From IMG/VR virus record IMGVR_UViG_2695420380_000009: 6,439 nt of DNA; one strand, 5' to 3'. The translations under genes and the position numbers were made by a program. Positions 2,760 through 6,439 of this stretch are shown here, piece after piece (position 1 is the first letter of the stretch; each line of letters starts with the position of its first letter). The DNA comes from a virus. Lineage: Duplodnaviria; Heunggongvirae; Uroviricota; Caudoviricetes. The notes beneath the pieces are model-generated. The model was not told the DNA's origin and did no database searches. It saw nothing but the letters and a program-made list of their open reading frames with translations.

Positions 2760-3133
2760 TGCGCCATGAGTTTATTTTACCTTATCCGCCGACGGTGAAT
2801 ACTTACTGGCGACGTCGTGGCAGCACATATTTTGTATCAAAAGTTGGTGAGCGTTATCGCCGTGATGTGACGCTAATTGTTCGCCAGCAGCGGCTGAAAT
2901 TAAACCTGTCCGGAAGGCTGGCGATAAAGATTATTGCAGAGCCACCGGATAAGCGCCGTCGTGACCTGGACAATATCCTGAAAGCACCACTGGATGCACT
3001 GACACATGCGGGAGTGTTAATGGACGATGAGCAGTTTGATGAAATCAATATCGTTCGTGGTCAGCCAGTATCTGGTGGACGTCTGGGGGTGAAGATTTAC
3101 CCCATAATGCATGAAGAGCAGGTCAAAAAATGA
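2759..3133 (+). CDS. rusA: Crossover junction endodeoxyribonuclease RusA (Holliday junction resolvase), the full-length copy of 124 aa.
   Basis: ATG at 2759 preceded by AGGAGG at 2743-2748. The protein shows family features as I recall them for E. coli RusA: N-terminal PYPPTVNTYW-type motif and the acidic catalytic region KRRRDLDNILKAPLDALTHAGVLMDDEQ. Start overlaps the upstream stop and the stop overlaps the Q start (ATGA). Confidence 0.85.
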   Translation: MRHEFILPYPPTVNTYWRRRGSTYFVSKVGERYRRDVTLIVRQQRLKLNLSGRLAIKIIAEPPDKRRRDLDNILKAPLDALTHAGVLMDDEQFDEINIVRGQPVSGGRLGVKIYPIMHEEQVKK

Positions 3134-4343
3134 AACTGGAAGATTTACCGAAATACTACTCCCCAAAATCCCCTTGCCTGACCGATGCATCGGNNNNNNN
3201 NNNNNNNNNNNNNNNNNNNNNNNNNNNNNNNNNNNNNNNNNNNNNNNNNNNNNNNNCCGATGCATCGGCCTCAACGTCAAAAGATGCGCTGAGTATCACT
3301 GATGTGATGGCCGCGCAGGGCATGACACAGAATCGGGCTGAGATGGGGTTTTCTGCGTTCCTGGGGAAAATGGGCATCAGTATGAATGACAGAGAGCGGG
3401 CAACAGAATTGCTGACAGAATATGCACTCAGTCNNNNNNNNNNNNNNNNNNNNNNNNNNNNNNNNNNNNNNNNNNNNNNNNNNNNNNNNNNNNNNNNNNN
3501 NNNNNNNNNNNNNNNNNNNNNNNNNNNNNNNNNNNNNNNNNNNNNNNNNNNNNNNNNNNNNNNNNNNNNNNNNNNNNNNNNNNNNNNNNNNNNNNNNNGT
3601 GTGATCGCGTGGCGGCGTTAAGAAAACTCCCGGCAGAAATAAAACCGGCAGTGATGCGTATTATGGCTTCGTATGCGTTTGAAGATTATGCCCGTAGCGC
3701 GGCGAGCAAAAAACAGTGCCCCTGCTGTCACGGAAAAAAATTTATTGAAAGCGAGGTTTTTACAAACAAGANNNNNNNNNNNCCGGCAGAAATAAAACCG
3801 GTAGTGATGCGCATTATGGCTTCGTACGCTTTTGAGGATTATGCCCGCAGCGCAGCGAGTAAAAAGCAGTGCCCTTGTTGCTATGGGGAAAAATTTATTG
3901 AAAGCGTAGTTTTTACAAACAAGGTCCAGTATCCGGATGGTAAGCCGCCGGTATGGGCAAAGTGTACGAAAGGTGTGTATCCGTCTTACTGGGAAGAATG
4001 GAAAAAAGTCAGGGAGGTGGTAAAAGTTGCCTGTCCGGAGTGTGGCGGAAAGGGTGAGGTTTCCACCGCCTGTAAGGATTGCCGTGGGCGTGGTGTCGCC
4101 ATTCATCGTGAAGAGTCGGTAAAACGTGGTATGCCTGTTATCAGAGACTGCCAGCGTTGTGGTGGTCGTGGCTATGAAAGACTACCATCAACGGAGGCAT
4201 TTAATGCTATATGCGAGGTGACAAACCAGATAACACGCGCGTCATGGGAAAAAACAGTTAAGAAATTTTATGATGCGCTGGTGACCCGGTTTGATATTGA
4301 AGAAGCATGGGCTGAGCGGCAGTTAAAAAAGGTAACTAGGTAA
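3130..4343 (+). CDS. Q: Late-gene antitermination protein Q, lambda Q family. As presented it is mosaic and not one intact ORF: the N-terminal part (3130-3433) and C-terminal part (3599-4343) are in different frames across a 165-N block.
   Basis: The N-terminal segment MKLEDLPKYYSPKSP...TDVMAAQGMTQNRAEMGFSAFLGK and the C-terminal tail ...WEKTVKKFYDALV...KKVTR resemble lambda Q as recalled from memory. Central CxxC zinc-binding motifs are present. The gene lies just upstream of a PR'-like promoter and terminator, the canonical Q position. Confidence 0.75.
3630..3923 (+). repeat. Diverged tandem duplication inside Q: two 141-bp copies (3630-3770 and 3783-3923) separated by 'a' plus 11 N, period 153 bp, in frame.
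   Basis: Direct alignment by eye shows about 16 mismatches in 141 bp, 14 of them transitions. Both copies encode PAEIKP[A/V]VMRIMASYAFEDYARSAASKKQCPCC[H/Y]G[K/E]KFIES[E/V]VFTNK. Confidence 0.7.
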
Positions 4344-4348
4344 CAAGG

Positions 4349-4395
4349 TTGATTTTTCCGGAATCTGTGGTAAATTCGTCATAACTATGGGCGTT
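4349..4395 (+). promoter_or_regulatory. PR'-like late promoter: -35 TTGATT (4349-4354), 16-bp spacer, extended -10 TGgTAAATT (4368-4376), followed by a candidate promoter-proximal pause/qut-like element (about 4377-4395).
   Basis: Sigma-70 consensus-like hexamers lie 5 nt after the Q stop. The architecture and downstream sequence cgtcataactatggg resemble lambda PR' (TTGACT-N17-TAAATT then tgactcaacgatggg) as recalled from memory. Confidence 0.6.
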
Positions 4396-4423
4396 TTATG
4401 CCTGACGTTAGAAGAGTTTCTAC

Positions 4424-4449
4424 AACCCGCCGCCGAGCGGGTTTTTTAT
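4424..4449 (+). terminator. Intrinsic terminator (tR'-like) about 40-65 nt downstream of the PR'-like start site.
   Basis: Stem aaCCCGC / GCGGGtt (5 G:C pairs plus 2 A:T pairs) with loop cgccga, followed by a T6 tract (4442-4447). Confidence 0.6.
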
Positions 4450-5043
4450 NNNNNNNNNNNNNNNNNNNNNNNNNNNNNNNNNNNNNNNNNNNNNNNNNNN
4501 NNNNNNNNNNNNNNNNNNNNNNNNNNNNNNNNNNNNNNNNNNNNNNNNNNNNNNNNNNNNNNNNNNNNNNNNNNNNNNNNNNNNNNNNNNNNNNNNNNNN
4601 NNNNNNNNNNNNNNNNNNNNNNNNNNNNNNNNNNNNNNNNNNNNNNNNNNNNNNNNNNNNNNNNNNNNNNNNNNNNNNNNNNNNNNNNNNNNNNNNNNNN
4701 NNNNNNNNNNNNNNNNNNNNNNNNNNNNNNNNNNNNNNNNNNNNNNNNNNNNNNNNNNNNNNNNNNNNNNNNNNNNNNNNNNNNNNNNNNNNNNNNNNNN
4801 NNNNNNNNNNNNNNNNNNNNNNNNNNNNNNNNNNNNNNNNNNNNNNNNNNNNNNNNNNNNNNNNNNNNNNNNNNNNNNNNNNNNNNNNNNNNNNNNNNNN
4901 NNNNNNNNNNNNNNNNNNNNNNNNNNNNNNNNNNNNNNNNNNNNNNNNNNNNNNNNNNNNNNNNNNNNNNNNNNNNNNNNNNNNNNNNNNNNNNNNNNNN
5001 NNNNNNNNNNATGCGTTGGGTTCACAAGCAAACCTCAGGCCCA

Positions 5044-5062
5044 CTGCTTTGCGCAAAAGCAG
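5044..5062 (+). promoter_or_regulatory. Perfect 7-bp inverted repeat, CTGCTTT-gcgca-AAAGCAG, 33 bp upstream of the methyltransferase start. Candidate operator or RNA hairpin; function unknown.
   Basis: Read directly from the sequence. There is no T-tract after it, so it is not a canonical intrinsic terminator. Confidence 0.3.
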
Positions 5063-5094
5063 AATGAGCCTATCAGAGACAGGCTTAATGATCC

Positions 5095-6288
5095 ATGCTT
5101 AATACTGTAAAAATATCCAGTTGTGAGTTAATCAACGCCGACTGCCTGGAATTTATCCGGTCGTTACCCGAAAATTCTGTTGACCTGATAGTCACGGACC
5201 CGCCGTACTTTAAAGTGAAGCCTGAGGGCTGGGATAACCAGTGGAAGGGCGACGATGATTACCTGAAGTGGCTGGACCAGTGTCTGGCGCAGTTCTGGCG
5301 GGTGCTGAAACCTGCCGGAAGTCTTTACCTGTTCTGTGGTCATCGCCTGGCATCTGATATCGAAATCATGATGCGTGAACGCTTCAGTGTGCTGAACCAT
5401 ATTATCTGGGCGAAGCCGTCCGGACGCTGGAACGGNNNNNNNNNNNNNNNNNNNNNNNNNNNNNNNNNNNNNNNNNNNNNNNNNNNNNNNNNNNNNNNNN
5501 NNNNNNNNNNNNNNNNNNNNCGGGCGTATTTCCCCGCCACAGAGCGCATTCTGTTCGCGGAACATTATCAGGGGCCGTATCGTCCGAAAGATGCCGGGTA
5601 TNNNNNNNNNNNNNNNNNNNNNNNNNNNNNNNNNNNNNNNNNNNNNNNNNNNNNNNNNNNNNNNNNNNNNNNNNNNNNNNNNNNNNNNNNNNNNNNNNNN
5701 NNNNNNNNNNNNNNNNNNNNNNNNNNNNNNNNNNNNNNNNNNNNNNNNNNNNNNNNNNNNNNNNNNNNNNNNNNNNNNNNNNNNNNNNNNNNNNNNNNNN
5801 NNNNNNNNNNNNNNNNNNNNNNNNNNNNNNNNNNNNNNNNNNNNNNNNNNNNNNNNNNNNNNNNNNNNNNNNNNNNNNNNNNNNNNNNNNNNNNNNNNNN
5901 NNNNNNNNNNNNNNNNNNNNNNNNNNNNNNNNNNNNNNNNNNNNNNNNNNNNNNNNNNNNNNNNNNNNNNNNNNNNNNNNNNNNNNNNNNNNNNNNNNNN
6001 NNNNNNNNNNNGACGGTGCAGGTGCCGTATACCGATGTGTGGACGCATAAACCGGTGCAGTTCTATCCCGGGAAACATCCGTGCGAAAAACCGGCAGAAA
6101 TGCTGCAGCAGATAATCAGCGCTAGCAGTCGTCCGGGTGACCTGATTGCAGATTTTTTCATGGGGTTGGGTTCGACAGTGAAAGCGGCACTGGCGCTCGG
6201 GCGTCGTGCAATTGGCGTTGAGCTGGAGACTGAACGTTTTGAGCAGACGGTTCGGGAAGTACAGGATTTAGTCAGCCAGAACGGATGA
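5095..6288 (+). CDS. DNA methyltransferase, beta-class amino-MTase (N6-adenine or N4-cytosine; PF01555-like). The central region is N-masked (5436-5520 and 5602-6011).
   Basis: N-terminal catalytic motif IV DLIVTDPPY (a DPPY tetrapeptide) and C-terminal AdoMet-binding motif I region HPCEKPAEMLQQIISASSRPGDLIADFFMGLGSTVKAALALGRRAIGVE. Motif IV preceding motif I is the beta-class order. The frame is preserved across both masked blocks (visible segments at 5095-5435, 5521-5601 and 6012-6288 share one frame). Confidence 0.8.
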   Translation: MLNTVKISSCELINADCLEFIRSLPENSVDLIVTDPPYFKVKPEGWDNQWKGDDDYLKWLDQCLAQFWRVLKPAGSLYLFCGHRLASDIEIMMRERFSVLNHIIWAKPSGRWNXXXXXXXXXXXXXXXXXXXXXXXXXXXXXRAYFPATERILFAEHYQGPYRPKDAGYXXXXXXXXXXXXXXXXXXXXXXXXXXXXXXXXXXXXXXXXXXXXXXXXXXXXXXXXXXXXXXXXXXXXXXXXXXXXXXXXXXXXXXXXXXXXXXXXXXXXXXXXXXXXXXXXXXXXXXXXXXXXXXXXXXXXXXXXXTVQVPYTDVWTHKPVQFYPGKHPCEKPAEMLQQIISASSRPGDLIADFFMGLGSTVKAALALGRRAIGVELETERFEQTVREVQDLVSQNG

Positions 6289-6290
6289 TA

Positions 6291-6319
6291 TTGAAGAATT
6301 AATTACGCGTCGTTATTAT
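6291..6319 (+). promoter_or_regulatory. Sigma-70 promoter for the tRNA: -35 TTGAAG (6291-6296), 17-bp spacer, -10 TATTAT (6314-6319), then a GC-rich discriminator gcggctccc before the tRNA 5' end.
   Basis: Near-consensus hexamers at optimal spacing, placed so transcription would start a few nt upstream of the tRNA at 6329. A GC-rich discriminator is typical of stable-RNA promoters. Confidence 0.5.
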
Positions 6320-6328
6320 GCGGCTCCC

Positions 6329-6401
6329 GGCCCTTTAGCTCAGTGGTGAGAGCGAGCGACTCATAATCGCCAGGTCGCTGGTTCAAGTCCAGCAAGGGTG
6401 A
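6329..6401 (+). tRNA. ileZ: tRNA with anticodon CAU, closely resembling E. coli tRNA-Ile2 (ileX/ileY type, the lysidine-modified AUA reader); ileZ-like phage-borne tRNA. No encoded CCA.
   Basis: Manual cloverleaf: acceptor GGCCCTT, D-arm GCTC-AGTGGTGA-GAGC, anticodon arm AGCGA-CTCATAA-TCGCC, variable loop AGGTC, T-arm GCTGG-TTCAAGT-CCAGC, 3' acceptor AAGGGTG, discriminator A. The T-arm is identical and the D-arm nearly identical to E. coli ileX as I recall it. Irregularities: G1-G72 mismatch, G2-U71 wobble, A27-C43 mismatch. Confidence 0.7.
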
Positions 6402-6439
6402 AGTAGTCAACAAAAACTGGCCACCGAGTTAGAGTTTTT

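Follow-up and report, generated by a model that had tools for sequence, protein, structure and literature searches.

A probable Shigella allele of the M.EcoGII family of adenine methyltransferases in the late region of a lambdoid prophage

INTRODUCTION

M.EcoGII (GenBank EGT69837.1) is a non-specific adenine methyltransferase encoded by a prophage of E. coli O104:H4 C227-11, and M.EcoGI is its paralogue. The characterisation of M.EcoGII, the prototype of its family, dates from 2017, and the enzyme is on sale as a reagent. It methylates adenine whatever its context, stays silent in the lysogen and, upon expression, slows growth, and M.EcoGI, which differs from it by 16 residues, was treated jointly with it as a promiscuous enzyme; in the same work Murray et al. 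gave Q-dependent expression and protection from restriction as likely, and named the enzyme of phage 1720a-02 ‘very similar’ to M.EcoGII (PMC5778455). The target-recognition domain has been delimited to residues 160–237 and described from an AlphaFold model as a helix-turn-helix within a four-helix bundle (PMC11551740). Reconstructed ancestors of the clade kept methyltransferase activity with no discernible motif, and the biochemical proof of non-specificity comes from M.EcoGII and these engineered ancestors only. In Stx2a prophages, methylases of 352 aa are encoded downstream of the antiterminator gene Q, and the prophage of strain 00-3076 also has a 273-aa Q protein (PMC10462455).

In this work, we have followed up an earlier note, which had described an apparently orphan DNA methyltransferase gene in a viral sequence of 6,439 nt (IMG/VR record IMGVR_UViG_2695420380_000009). 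This whole stretch, here called the window, is the entire NCBI draft contig CXCT01000198.1 (GCA_001249045.1), Ns included, which an exact match to its RusA protein identified.

RESULTS

The gene encodes a beta-class amino-methyltransferase

The open frame that had been read on the + strand from the ATG at 5095 to the stop at 6288 is borne out by our analysis, and so is the order of its motifs, with motif IV (DPPY, 5197–5208) preceding the AdoMet-binding motif I (FxGxG, here FMGLG, 6157–6171), each of them in this frame. Three pieces of the gene are visible on the + strand: residues 1–113 (5095–5435), which include motif IV; residues 121–147 (5521–5601, translation RAYFPATERILFAEHYQGPYRPKDAGY), which are 100% identical to those of the relatives; and residues 262–352 (6012–6288), which include motif I. 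In a Pfam profile search the N-terminal piece matched PF01555 (N6_N4_Mtase) with 60.6 bits (E 2.8e-16) and the C-terminal piece with 81.9 bits (E 8.3e-23), the gathering threshold of this profile being 26.7 bits, while a full-length relative protein scored 144.1 bits. Both the profile and the motif order place the product in the beta class of amino-methyltransferases (N6-adenine or N4-cytosine), and the gene is a real member of this class. A Dam-like, alpha-class (GATC) phage orphan was considered and ruled out, since the motif order is the reverse and PF01555 is the sole profile match.

Scaffold gaps account for the apparent length of the gene

Two runs of N interrupt the gene at 5436–5520 (85 N) and 5602–6011 (410 N), at the coordinates claimed previously. 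The earlier note took them for masking of the recognition region; the same Ns are present in CXCT01000198.1 as publicly deposited, and its recorded gene calls end at the N borders (5095–5435 and 6012–6288), so they are native assembly gaps and nothing has been hidden. To read across them we used a comparison set of 15 contigs free of Ns (L003–L012, L024 and L026–L029), all of which are 100% identical to the window at the DNA level at 5011–5435 and 5521–5601 and differ from it by 0 or 1 base over 6012–6398. In these relatives the first gap corresponds to 19 nt (residues 114–120, GCNKESL), so that the run of Ns is 66 nt too long, and the second, which separates the two motifs, to 341 nt (residues 148–261) that are present in 15/15 contigs, so that it is 69 nt too long. 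The previous length of 397 codons came from a frame that is unbroken solely through the two N runs, and relatives with identical DNA have 352 codons. Since the gaps amount to 19 and 341 nt in the relatives, the real gene length would almost certainly be 352 codons, and the 397 codons an artefact of mis-sized scaffold gaps.

One third of the gene (residues 114–120 and 148–261) is thus unsequenced in the window contig. Residues 148–261 comprise linkers and the entire helix-turn-helix target-recognition domain, and the claim that the specificity-determining centre falls in the gap therefore stands, as these residues span the published domain. More generally, draft scaffolds of prophage-rich genomes yield in-frame pseudo-extensions of the methyltransferase gene, such as the product of 397 aa in the window and chimeras of 386 and 402 aa in public protein sets, and these are best not taken for new domain architectures.

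The product is closely related to M.EcoGII

The full-length 352-aa relative is identical to M.EcoGII at 324 of 349 positions (93%), where the M.EcoGII reference is the uncorrected machine-read text of Supplementary Table S1 of PMC11551740, a few positions of which are uncertain. A hand-corrected version of this sequence had no exact match in the protein collection. In the window itself, residues 1–113 and 121–147 equal those of M.EcoGII save for one position, which is probably a character-recognition error in the supplement text. The relatives' recognition-domain sequence aligns with that of M.EcoGII without gaps. The two proteins differ in length (352 aa in the Shigella allele and 349 in M.EcoGII) and in their C-terminal tails (…DLVSQNG and …DLIV, respectively), the Shigella allele has Leu313 in motif I where M.EcoGII has Ser, and some 20 further substitutions, known from the relatives, lie mostly in residues 148–261, which fall in the gap here. 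The relative P0121 is closer still to the enzyme of phage 1720a-02 (AGR48369.1), with 333/352 identical residues (95%) and equal length.

The locus lies between Q and the tRNA genes

The gene has a Q antiterminator gene (PF03589) upstream and a tRNA gene downstream, as had been proposed. The Q-type gene (3130–4343, + strand) encodes 273 aa in the N-free relatives, and a relative's protein matches the Antiterm profile PF03589 with an E-value of 1.6e-53. In the window, three N runs and scaffold pieces that overlap and are duplicated break up Q, and when this region was mapped onto contigs L002, L007 and L024 it showed back-jumps and a 141-nt overlap. The same helicase gene leads, in complete Shigella-type genomes, to a lambda-type Q without a methylase, an observation that had raised the suspicion of a chimera of two prophages. 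The chimera is now less likely, as the N-free sister contigs carry helicase, RusA, the 273-aa Q and the methylase contiguously; back-jumps in the scaffolding, which may have used a second prophage's alleles, would better account for the window's additional copies.

A putative pR'-like late promoter (4349–4376, +) begins 6 nt past the Q stop codon and consists of TTGATT, a 16-nt spacer and TAAATT, with a TG one base 5' of the -10 hexamer; it matches 8/12 consensus positions, below the scanner minimum of 9, and was read directly from the sequence. It is followed by a -10-like element, AACTAT-GGG, at 4383–4391 (AACGAT-GGG in relative L007). The two together show an apparent resemblance to pR' of phage lambda and the sigma-dependent pause element that belongs to it. 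A tR'-like intrinsic terminator (4424–4449, +), formed by AACCCGCCGCCGAGCGGGTT followed by TTTTTAT, was found by a terminator scan in both the window and relative L007. Next comes a scaffold gap of 561 N (4450–5010), which corresponds to 382 nt in the N-free relatives; this interval holds a 65-aa ORF (phrog_331, no assigned function, with a weak wHTH-like match to TrmB) and then a second terminator-like hairpin.

Downstream of the methyltransferase lies a tRNA gene with a CAT anticodon (6329–6401, +), called tRNA-Met by ARAGORN; RefSeq and phage records name its orthologue tRNA-Ile or ileZ. The junction with an insertion sequence takes the place of the final 3–4 nt in its 3' acceptor strand, the window departing from the relatives after 6398, and the last ~41 nt of the contig (6399–6439, +) are the end of an ISEc52-like element of the IS3 family. 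Contig L014 has the window's final 63 nt without a mismatch, but its upstream sequence differs. In exact searches, the tRNA/IS junction matched L014 alone among the viral contigs and, with tRNA context added, nothing among the metagenome contigs; a pattern across a single-N junction had no match in the viral contigs.

The gene is an orphan with the layout of Stx2 phages

The orphan claim is sustained: in the N-free contigs and in annotated phages the phrog_331 ORF is the only one between Q and the methyltransferase, and tRNA genes follow. No nuclease gene was found beside the methyltransferase in the N-free sister contigs, annotated phages or E. coli loci, and since no relative has an adjacent endonuclease we consider the gene an orphan. 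The Stx-phage arrangement given in the earlier note is also found, with 291 matching phage records, mostly of Stx2-converting phages, that show Q, methylase, tRNAs and stx2. More broadly, Stx2 phages and E. coli prophages have in common the order Q, small ORF, methylase, tRNAs, and then stx2 or nanS-p, the tRNA series after the methylase being, in Stx2 phages and lambdoid prophages, tRNA-Ile(CAT), tRNA-Arg and tRNA-Arg. In contrast with the Stx phages, the N-free Shigella-type relatives have no stx after the methylase; their downstream regions carry either tRNAs, STnc100 copies and a SASA/NanS-p-type esterase, or DUF3927 and PmrD-like genes, while the window stops in the IS element.

Catalogued proteins, alleles and the change at residue 313

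Both the gene and its family are already known, the exact protein being catalogued and the prototype characterised. By translation, ten IMG/VR N-free contigs encode one identical 352-aa protein, and five NCBI N-free contigs have a 352-aa gene call at the equivalent place. NCBI lists the identical protein on at least 997 contigs and names it ‘site-specific DNA-methyltransferase [Shigella sonnei] / MULTISPECIES [Shigella]’. In an NCBIfam search no model reached its cut-off for the methyltransferase. Of 5426 complete E. coli genomes, 1923 carry the N-terminal third of the gene, and the dN/dS values of 0.12–0.19 among alleles show that these are under purifying selection.

Motif I reads FMGLG in the window and FMGSG in other members of the family. 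Residue 313 is Ser in all 106 cluster representatives (74–98% identity) and Leu in the Shigella allele, and this Ser313Leu change is the allele's only peculiarity. An exact 61-mer search found the Leu313 variant in 0 of the 5426 complete E. coli genomes, and it is common in Shigella-named records. A 30-mer over the variant motif I matched ten sister contigs among the viral contigs and none of the genome contigs.

DISCUSSION

Our results indicate, with good confidence, that the gene at 5095–6288 belongs to the M.EcoGII family as its Shigella allele, an orphan beta-class N6-adenine methyltransferase gene in the late operon of a lambdoid prophage. The high identity to M.EcoGII, the prophage location and the orphan state without an adjacent endonuclease all agree with this assignment. 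The label ‘site-specific DNA-methyltransferase’ is probably misleading for the M.EcoGII family.

With a pR'-like promoter and a terminator upstream of it, the gene would most likely be a Q-dependent late gene, silent in the lysogen, whose product methylates phage DNA after induction and so helps it to evade restriction. The proposed steps of regulation and function draw on the anatomy of the locus and on the published work on M.EcoGII. In the lysogen, transcripts from the pR'-like promoter would end at 4424–4449, after ~65 nt, unless RNA polymerase is modified by Q, and with a second terminator after the 65-aa ORF, as in the relatives, the enzyme would not be made. Upon induction, Q-modified RNA polymerase would pass the terminator and the enzyme would be produced with the other late genes. 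It may then act as a homodimer that methylates adenines of the phage DNA under replication, almost or wholly regardless of sequence. This could shield the packaged genomes, once they enter a new host, from the numerous restriction systems of Types I, II and III that m6A blocks. Our literature search found no direct evidence for induction-dependent expression of the family or for hypermethylation of phage DNA. Because M.EcoGII is non-specific and silent in the lysogen, a motif probably does not exist; one would not be expected in a lysogen's methylome, and its absence there would be uninformative on function.

Could the enzyme instead be a sequence-specific orphan, whose helix-turn-helix reads a defined motif, perhaps for the epigenetic control of phage or host genes? 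The RefSeq and NCBI product names point in this direction, but such a name is a generic family label, with no NCBIfam model at its cut-off behind it. M.PflMI, the nearest relative with confirmed site-specific activity, falls in the same sequence-similarity cluster, yet it is 27% identical to M.EcoGII, compared with 93% for the Shigella protein. The ~20 substitutions that separate the allele from M.EcoGII, concentrated in residues 148–261, might be thought to confer a new specificity; however, M.EcoGI and M.EcoGII are treated together as promiscuous despite their 16 differences, and ancestors far more divergent than the Shigella allele showed no discernible motif. We therefore consider a site-specific enzyme very unlikely. 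Even more improbable, to the point of being nearly negligible, is that the gene supplies the modification activity of a restriction-modification pair whose endonuclease was lost in the 561-N gap. The sole point in its favour is the position of that gap directly upstream, a block that according to the earlier note could hide a partner; the sister contigs with identical flanks have there the 382 nt with the phrog_331 ORF of 65 aa and its terminator, annotated phage and E. coli loci have no nuclease at this place, and downstream there are tRNAs.

A different question is whether the Shigella allele is still active. It may be inactive or weakened, or the gene may be disrupted in this isolate; it would then be the decaying remnant of a gene carried by a cryptic prophage, where the loss of a potentially toxic non-specific methyltransferase would be tolerated or even favoured. 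Several observations are in line with this possibility: Ser313Leu lies within motif I (DFFMG-S-GST), at a residue otherwise invariant among the representatives; the variant is missing, as an exact 61-mer, from complete E. coli genomes and frequent in Shigella-named records; expression of M.EcoGII damages growth (PMC5778455); in Shigella genomes, the prophage regions around the gene are full of IS elements; and a third of the gene is a gap in the window contig. Against it, the 352-codon frame is intact in 15/15 N-free sister contigs. Position 313 is, moreover, the second ‘x’ of FxGxG, and the solved structures of CcrM and 2zie have at the equivalent position Val and Thr, respectively, so a hydrophobic residue can fit, and the proposal that Ser313Leu is clearly inactivating was not upheld. 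Likewise, when compared with other alleles the Shigella allele gives a dN/dS of 0.16–0.19, which is not above the rest, a comparison of 11–20 non-synonymous differences with little power for the terminal branch. On balance we judge an inactive or decaying gene unlikely. It is similarly doubtful that Leu313, apparently standard in Shigella, marks a form of low or no activity that arose naturally and became fixed because leaky expression of a non-specific adenine methyltransferase does harm when it comes from a decaying prophage rich in IS elements. If this were true, it would be a natural case of selection detoxifying a promiscuous phage enzyme, and Leu313 would offer, ready-made, a low-activity version of a reagent in wide use for chromatin footprinting.

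How does the Shigella allele of the M.EcoGII family, as we prefer to read the gene, compare with other known enzymes? With M.EcoGII it shares the order of DPPY and FxGxG, between which the relatives have the recognition domain, as well as being prophage-borne and orphan. Other 352-aa methylases are encoded by Stx2 phages and lambdoid prophages, namely that of the Stx2a phage Stx2_EH2201 (BCI49723.1) and those of strains 11128, RM13516, 155 and 00-3076 (PMC10462455). CcrM, M.RsrI, M.MboIIA, DpnA/M.HpyAVI and M.PvuII have the Rossmann core and the motifs in common with it (phmmer E-values of 1e-25 to 1e-7, in two core segments), whereas their central recognition domain has no detectable similarity; the beta-class enzymes of solved structure read defined sites, and most of them have a partner nuclease or a role in the cell cycle. 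A like logic is apparently found in the M.HaeV/Hia5-type enzymes and in Mom of phage Mu, which are prophage-borne, of low or no specificity, kept off in the lysogen and brought into use upon induction. The former, however, belong to the alpha class, with the reverse motif order, and Mom has a different chemistry, so that both are analogues of the M.EcoGII family and not homologues.

Results

The frame read from ATG to stop at 5095-6288 (plus strand) has real bases at 693 of its 1194 positions (5095-5435, 5521-5601 and 6012-6288), the remainder being two N runs of 85 and 410. Both large visible pieces match Pfam PF01555 (N6_N4_Mtase), scoring 60.6 and 81.9 bits where the cut-off is 26.7 bits, and DPPY (5197-5208) precedes the AdoMet motif FMGLG (6157-6171) in one shared frame, which bears out the beta-class motif order described in an earlier note on this DNA. 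The observation of a methyltransferase is real and far beyond chance. On every feature that sequence analysis can test, the gene falls within both PF01555 and the M.EcoGII family; it is neither part of a restriction-modification pair nor a Dam-like alpha-class enzyme. A comparison of four alleles gave dN/dS values of 0.12-0.19, that is, purifying selection.

An exact search with the window's RusA protein led to the public contig CXCT01000198.1 (6439 nt, draft assembly GCA_001249045.1), which is identical to the window, every N run included; thus, the N runs are native scaffold gaps and not a mask over known sequence. The recorded gene calls on that contig share the coordinates of the window and break off where the N runs begin or end (5095-5435 and 6012-6288). 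The recognition region is out of view, as the earlier note had said, since the gap at 5602-6011 covers methyltransferase residues 148-261, but its description as masked does not hold. Three gaps could be measured directly against sister contigs that are free of N and have identical flanking DNA, and all three are longer than the distance that they span: 561 N stand for 382 nt, 85 N for 19 nt and 410 N for 341 nt. The remaining three N runs stand at backward jumps or in place of a single base, and mapping against one N-free sister (L024) showed backward jumps of 621, 357 and 12 nt at N junctions. In repeated prophage regions, short-read scaffolders and gap-fillers tend to leave padded gaps and joins by a single N. 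The two gaps inside the gene are too long by 66 and 69 nt, and because both excesses are multiples of three the frame stays open, giving 397 codons; in all ten IMG/VR and all five NCBI contigs whose flanking DNA is identical, the gene has 352 codons. The 397-codon frame of the window is a scaffolding artefact, and this is the sole new point of our analysis. Two public predicted proteins of the family are assembly chimeras of the same kind: in P0001 (386 aa, Logan) two alleles are stitched together into an in-frame duplication of 34 residues, and in P0092 (402 aa, ENA) the methyltransferase is joined to a segment of a phage tail-assembly protein (PF02413). Unusual lengths among proteins of this family deserve distrust.

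Further upstream, the window holds near-duplicate tandem blocks that are 90-96% identical (1284-1904 and 1906-2526; 2242-2598 and 2596-2952; 1619-1904 and 2595-2880), with a single N at their junctions (1905, 2599). The blocks give rise to spurious fusion ORFs; one of these, 1783-2151, links the start of RusA to the C-terminus of DnaB. The N-free sister contigs have one copy of each block; the duplicates are due to backward jumps of the scaffold, in which alleles from two prophages may be mixed. The Q antiterminator gene (3130-4343, plus strand), of which an intact 273-aa relative matches PF03589 (1.6e-53), is broken by three N runs, and the run of 165 N at 3434-3598 corresponds to 1 nt in relatives. 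Its fragment 3599-3771 is a different allele that overlaps the next fragment by 141 nt, and is 100% identical to the related sequences L007 and L009 but only 89.5% to L002; two Q alleles are thus chained in the scaffold.

Between Q and the methyltransferase, the N-free relatives have a terminator, an ORF of 65 aa and another terminator-like hairpin; this ORF matches phrog_331, of unknown function, and has a sub-threshold match of the TrmB winged-helix type. No nuclease was found among the annotated or called neighbours of the methyltransferase in any relative examined. With the 65-aa ORF upstream and tRNAs downstream, the gene is an orphan, as had been proposed; the accompanying caution that the upstream N block could hide a partner is answered by the 382 nt that replace the 561 N in relatives, and a restriction partner hidden there is effectively excluded.

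Six bases past the Q stop codon the sequence reads as a pR'-like promoter, in which TTGATT and TAAATT stand 16 nt apart and a TG lies one base before the -10 hexamer. Six bases further on stands a -10-like element, AACTAT-GGG (AACGAT-GGG in L007), in an arrangement that would correspond to lambda pR' with its sigma-dependent pause element, the site of Q loading. A scan of the window placed a strong intrinsic terminator at 4424-4449 (plus strand). Promoter, pause-like element and terminator (4349-4449) would yield a short transcript of about 65 nt downstream of Q, the position at which lambdoid and Stx phages have short pR'-tR' RNAs; no Rfam match was obtained in this region at the gathering threshold.

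Downstream of the gene, a tRNA search found a tRNA with a CAT anticodon (6329-6401, plus strand), whose orthologue is annotated as tRNA-Ile or ileZ in RefSeq and phage records. Between the methyltransferase stop and this tRNA lies a promoter-like site (6291-6319; TTGAAG, 17 nt, TATTAT) with 9 of 12 consensus matches, also present in L007, from which the tRNAs could be expressed independently of Q. The window ends with about 41 nt of an IS3-family (ISEc52-like) terminus in place of the last acceptor-stem bases. Its last 63 nt (6377-6439) are identical to IMG/VR contig L014, which differs upstream, and contain, in the tRNA T-arm, the sole mismatch to the sister contigs; this contig end reflects either a genuine insertion of the IS into the 3' end of the tRNA or a switch of path during assembly. 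In the N-free L007, two STnc100 sRNA copies (6422-6631 and 6909-7098, minus strand) lie past three tRNAs, at the site where Stx phages carry stx, and the prophage has a sok antitoxin RNA (12331-12506) further upstream.

The gene is already known: it has been published and catalogued, as have its position and its family. The 352-aa protein of the ten IMG/VR sister contigs is listed at NCBI as 'site-specific DNA-methyltransferase [Shigella sonnei]' or 'MULTISPECIES [Shigella]', on at least 997 contigs. Close DNA relatives, at 95-98.5% identity, come from prophages of E. coli and from Stx2-converting phages, with the order Q, small ORF, DNA methylase, tRNA-Ile(CAT), tRNA-Arg, tRNA-Arg and stx2AB, in agreement with the position between Q and the tRNAs that the earlier note gives for a methylase of Stx-converting phages. 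In some Stx2a prophages 352-aa methylases have been described downstream of Q, with 50-aa remnants in the others; a Q of 273 aa is described as well (PMC10462455). Of 5426 complete E. coli genomes, 1923 contain the N-terminal third of the gene, some of them as many as six times, and homologues of 74-86% identity are present in Citrobacter, Salmonella, Klebsiella, Enterobacter, Cronobacter, Pantoea and others. A DnaB-like helicase exactly matching that of the window (463 aa) is present in complete Shigella-type genomes (L016-L023), including HE616528.1, presumably Shigella sonnei 53G. Together with the NCBI entries for the methyltransferase, this makes a Shigella draft genome the almost certain source of the window. 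In the complete genomes, around 10001-12393, the helicase is followed by an 85-aa ORF, a RusA of 123 aa and a lambda-type Q of 128 aa (PF06530); no methyltransferase follows, and many IS1, IS3 and IS4 copies flank the helicase. In short draft contigs it is joined instead to RusA-124, Q-273 and the methyltransferase; every record of the exact RusA-124 protein is on a contig below 10 kb.

Discussion

The 352-aa protein of the sister contigs, here the Shigella allele, differs from its family in motif I, which reads FMGLGS in the window and in all N-free sister contigs and FMGSGS in 106 of 106 cluster representatives (74-98% identity). The change, Ser313Leu, is a TCG to TTG substitution in codon 6166-6168; the Leu313 protein is abundant in Shigella-named records, and an exact 61-mer around the codon was found in none of the 5426 complete E. 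coli genomes. The substitution might weaken AdoMet binding. However, position 313 is an 'x' of FxGxG, where CcrM has Val and the Thermus enzyme 2zie has Thr, and the frame is unbroken in all N-free copies, so we regard inactivation as a minor rival and not as a finding.

The gene occupies a lambdoid late-gene position, downstream of tR', and its transcription would therefore be expected only with Q-modified RNA polymerase after induction. We infer for the Shigella allele Q-dependent expression, lack of specificity and an anti-restriction role: upon induction Q would modify RNA polymerase, the methyltransferase would be transcribed and would place blanket m6A on replicating phage DNA, and the marked progeny could thereby evade the wide range of restriction systems blocked by adenine methylation. 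This role of blanket m6A was proposed by Murray et al. (PMC5778455) and repeated in reviews. Q-dependent silence would fit the published silence of M.EcoGI and M.EcoGII in lysogens and the harm to the cell on expression.

M.EcoGII, which an E. coli O104:H4 prophage encodes, was characterised as a beta-class enzyme that modifies adenine whatever the surrounding sequence; the lysogen does not express it, and growth is slower when it is expressed. The same work assigns it to 'a very large family' in prophages of E. coli and names phage 1720a-02 as the carrier of 'a very similar MTase' (PMC5778455). A nucleotide search matched that phage at 95.4% identity, and its protein shares 333 of 352 residues with the Shigella allele. 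M.EcoGII itself (Supplementary Table S1, PMC11551740), read by machine from the supplement with a few obvious errors, shares 324 of 349, and window residues 1-113 and 121-147 equal M.EcoGII throughout, save one probable machine-reading error. The recognition domain is a four-helix bundle with a helix-turn-helix (residues 160-237), reconstructed ancestors of the clade are active without discernible motif, and M.PflMI, the nearest relative with confirmed site-specific activity, is only 27% identical (PMC11551740). The recognition region of this family probably holds no specificity to read. Mom of phage Mu and the alpha-class modifiers of the Hia5/M.HaeV type are other silent, promiscuous prophage modifiers, to which this methyltransferase is unrelated although it would work in a similar way.
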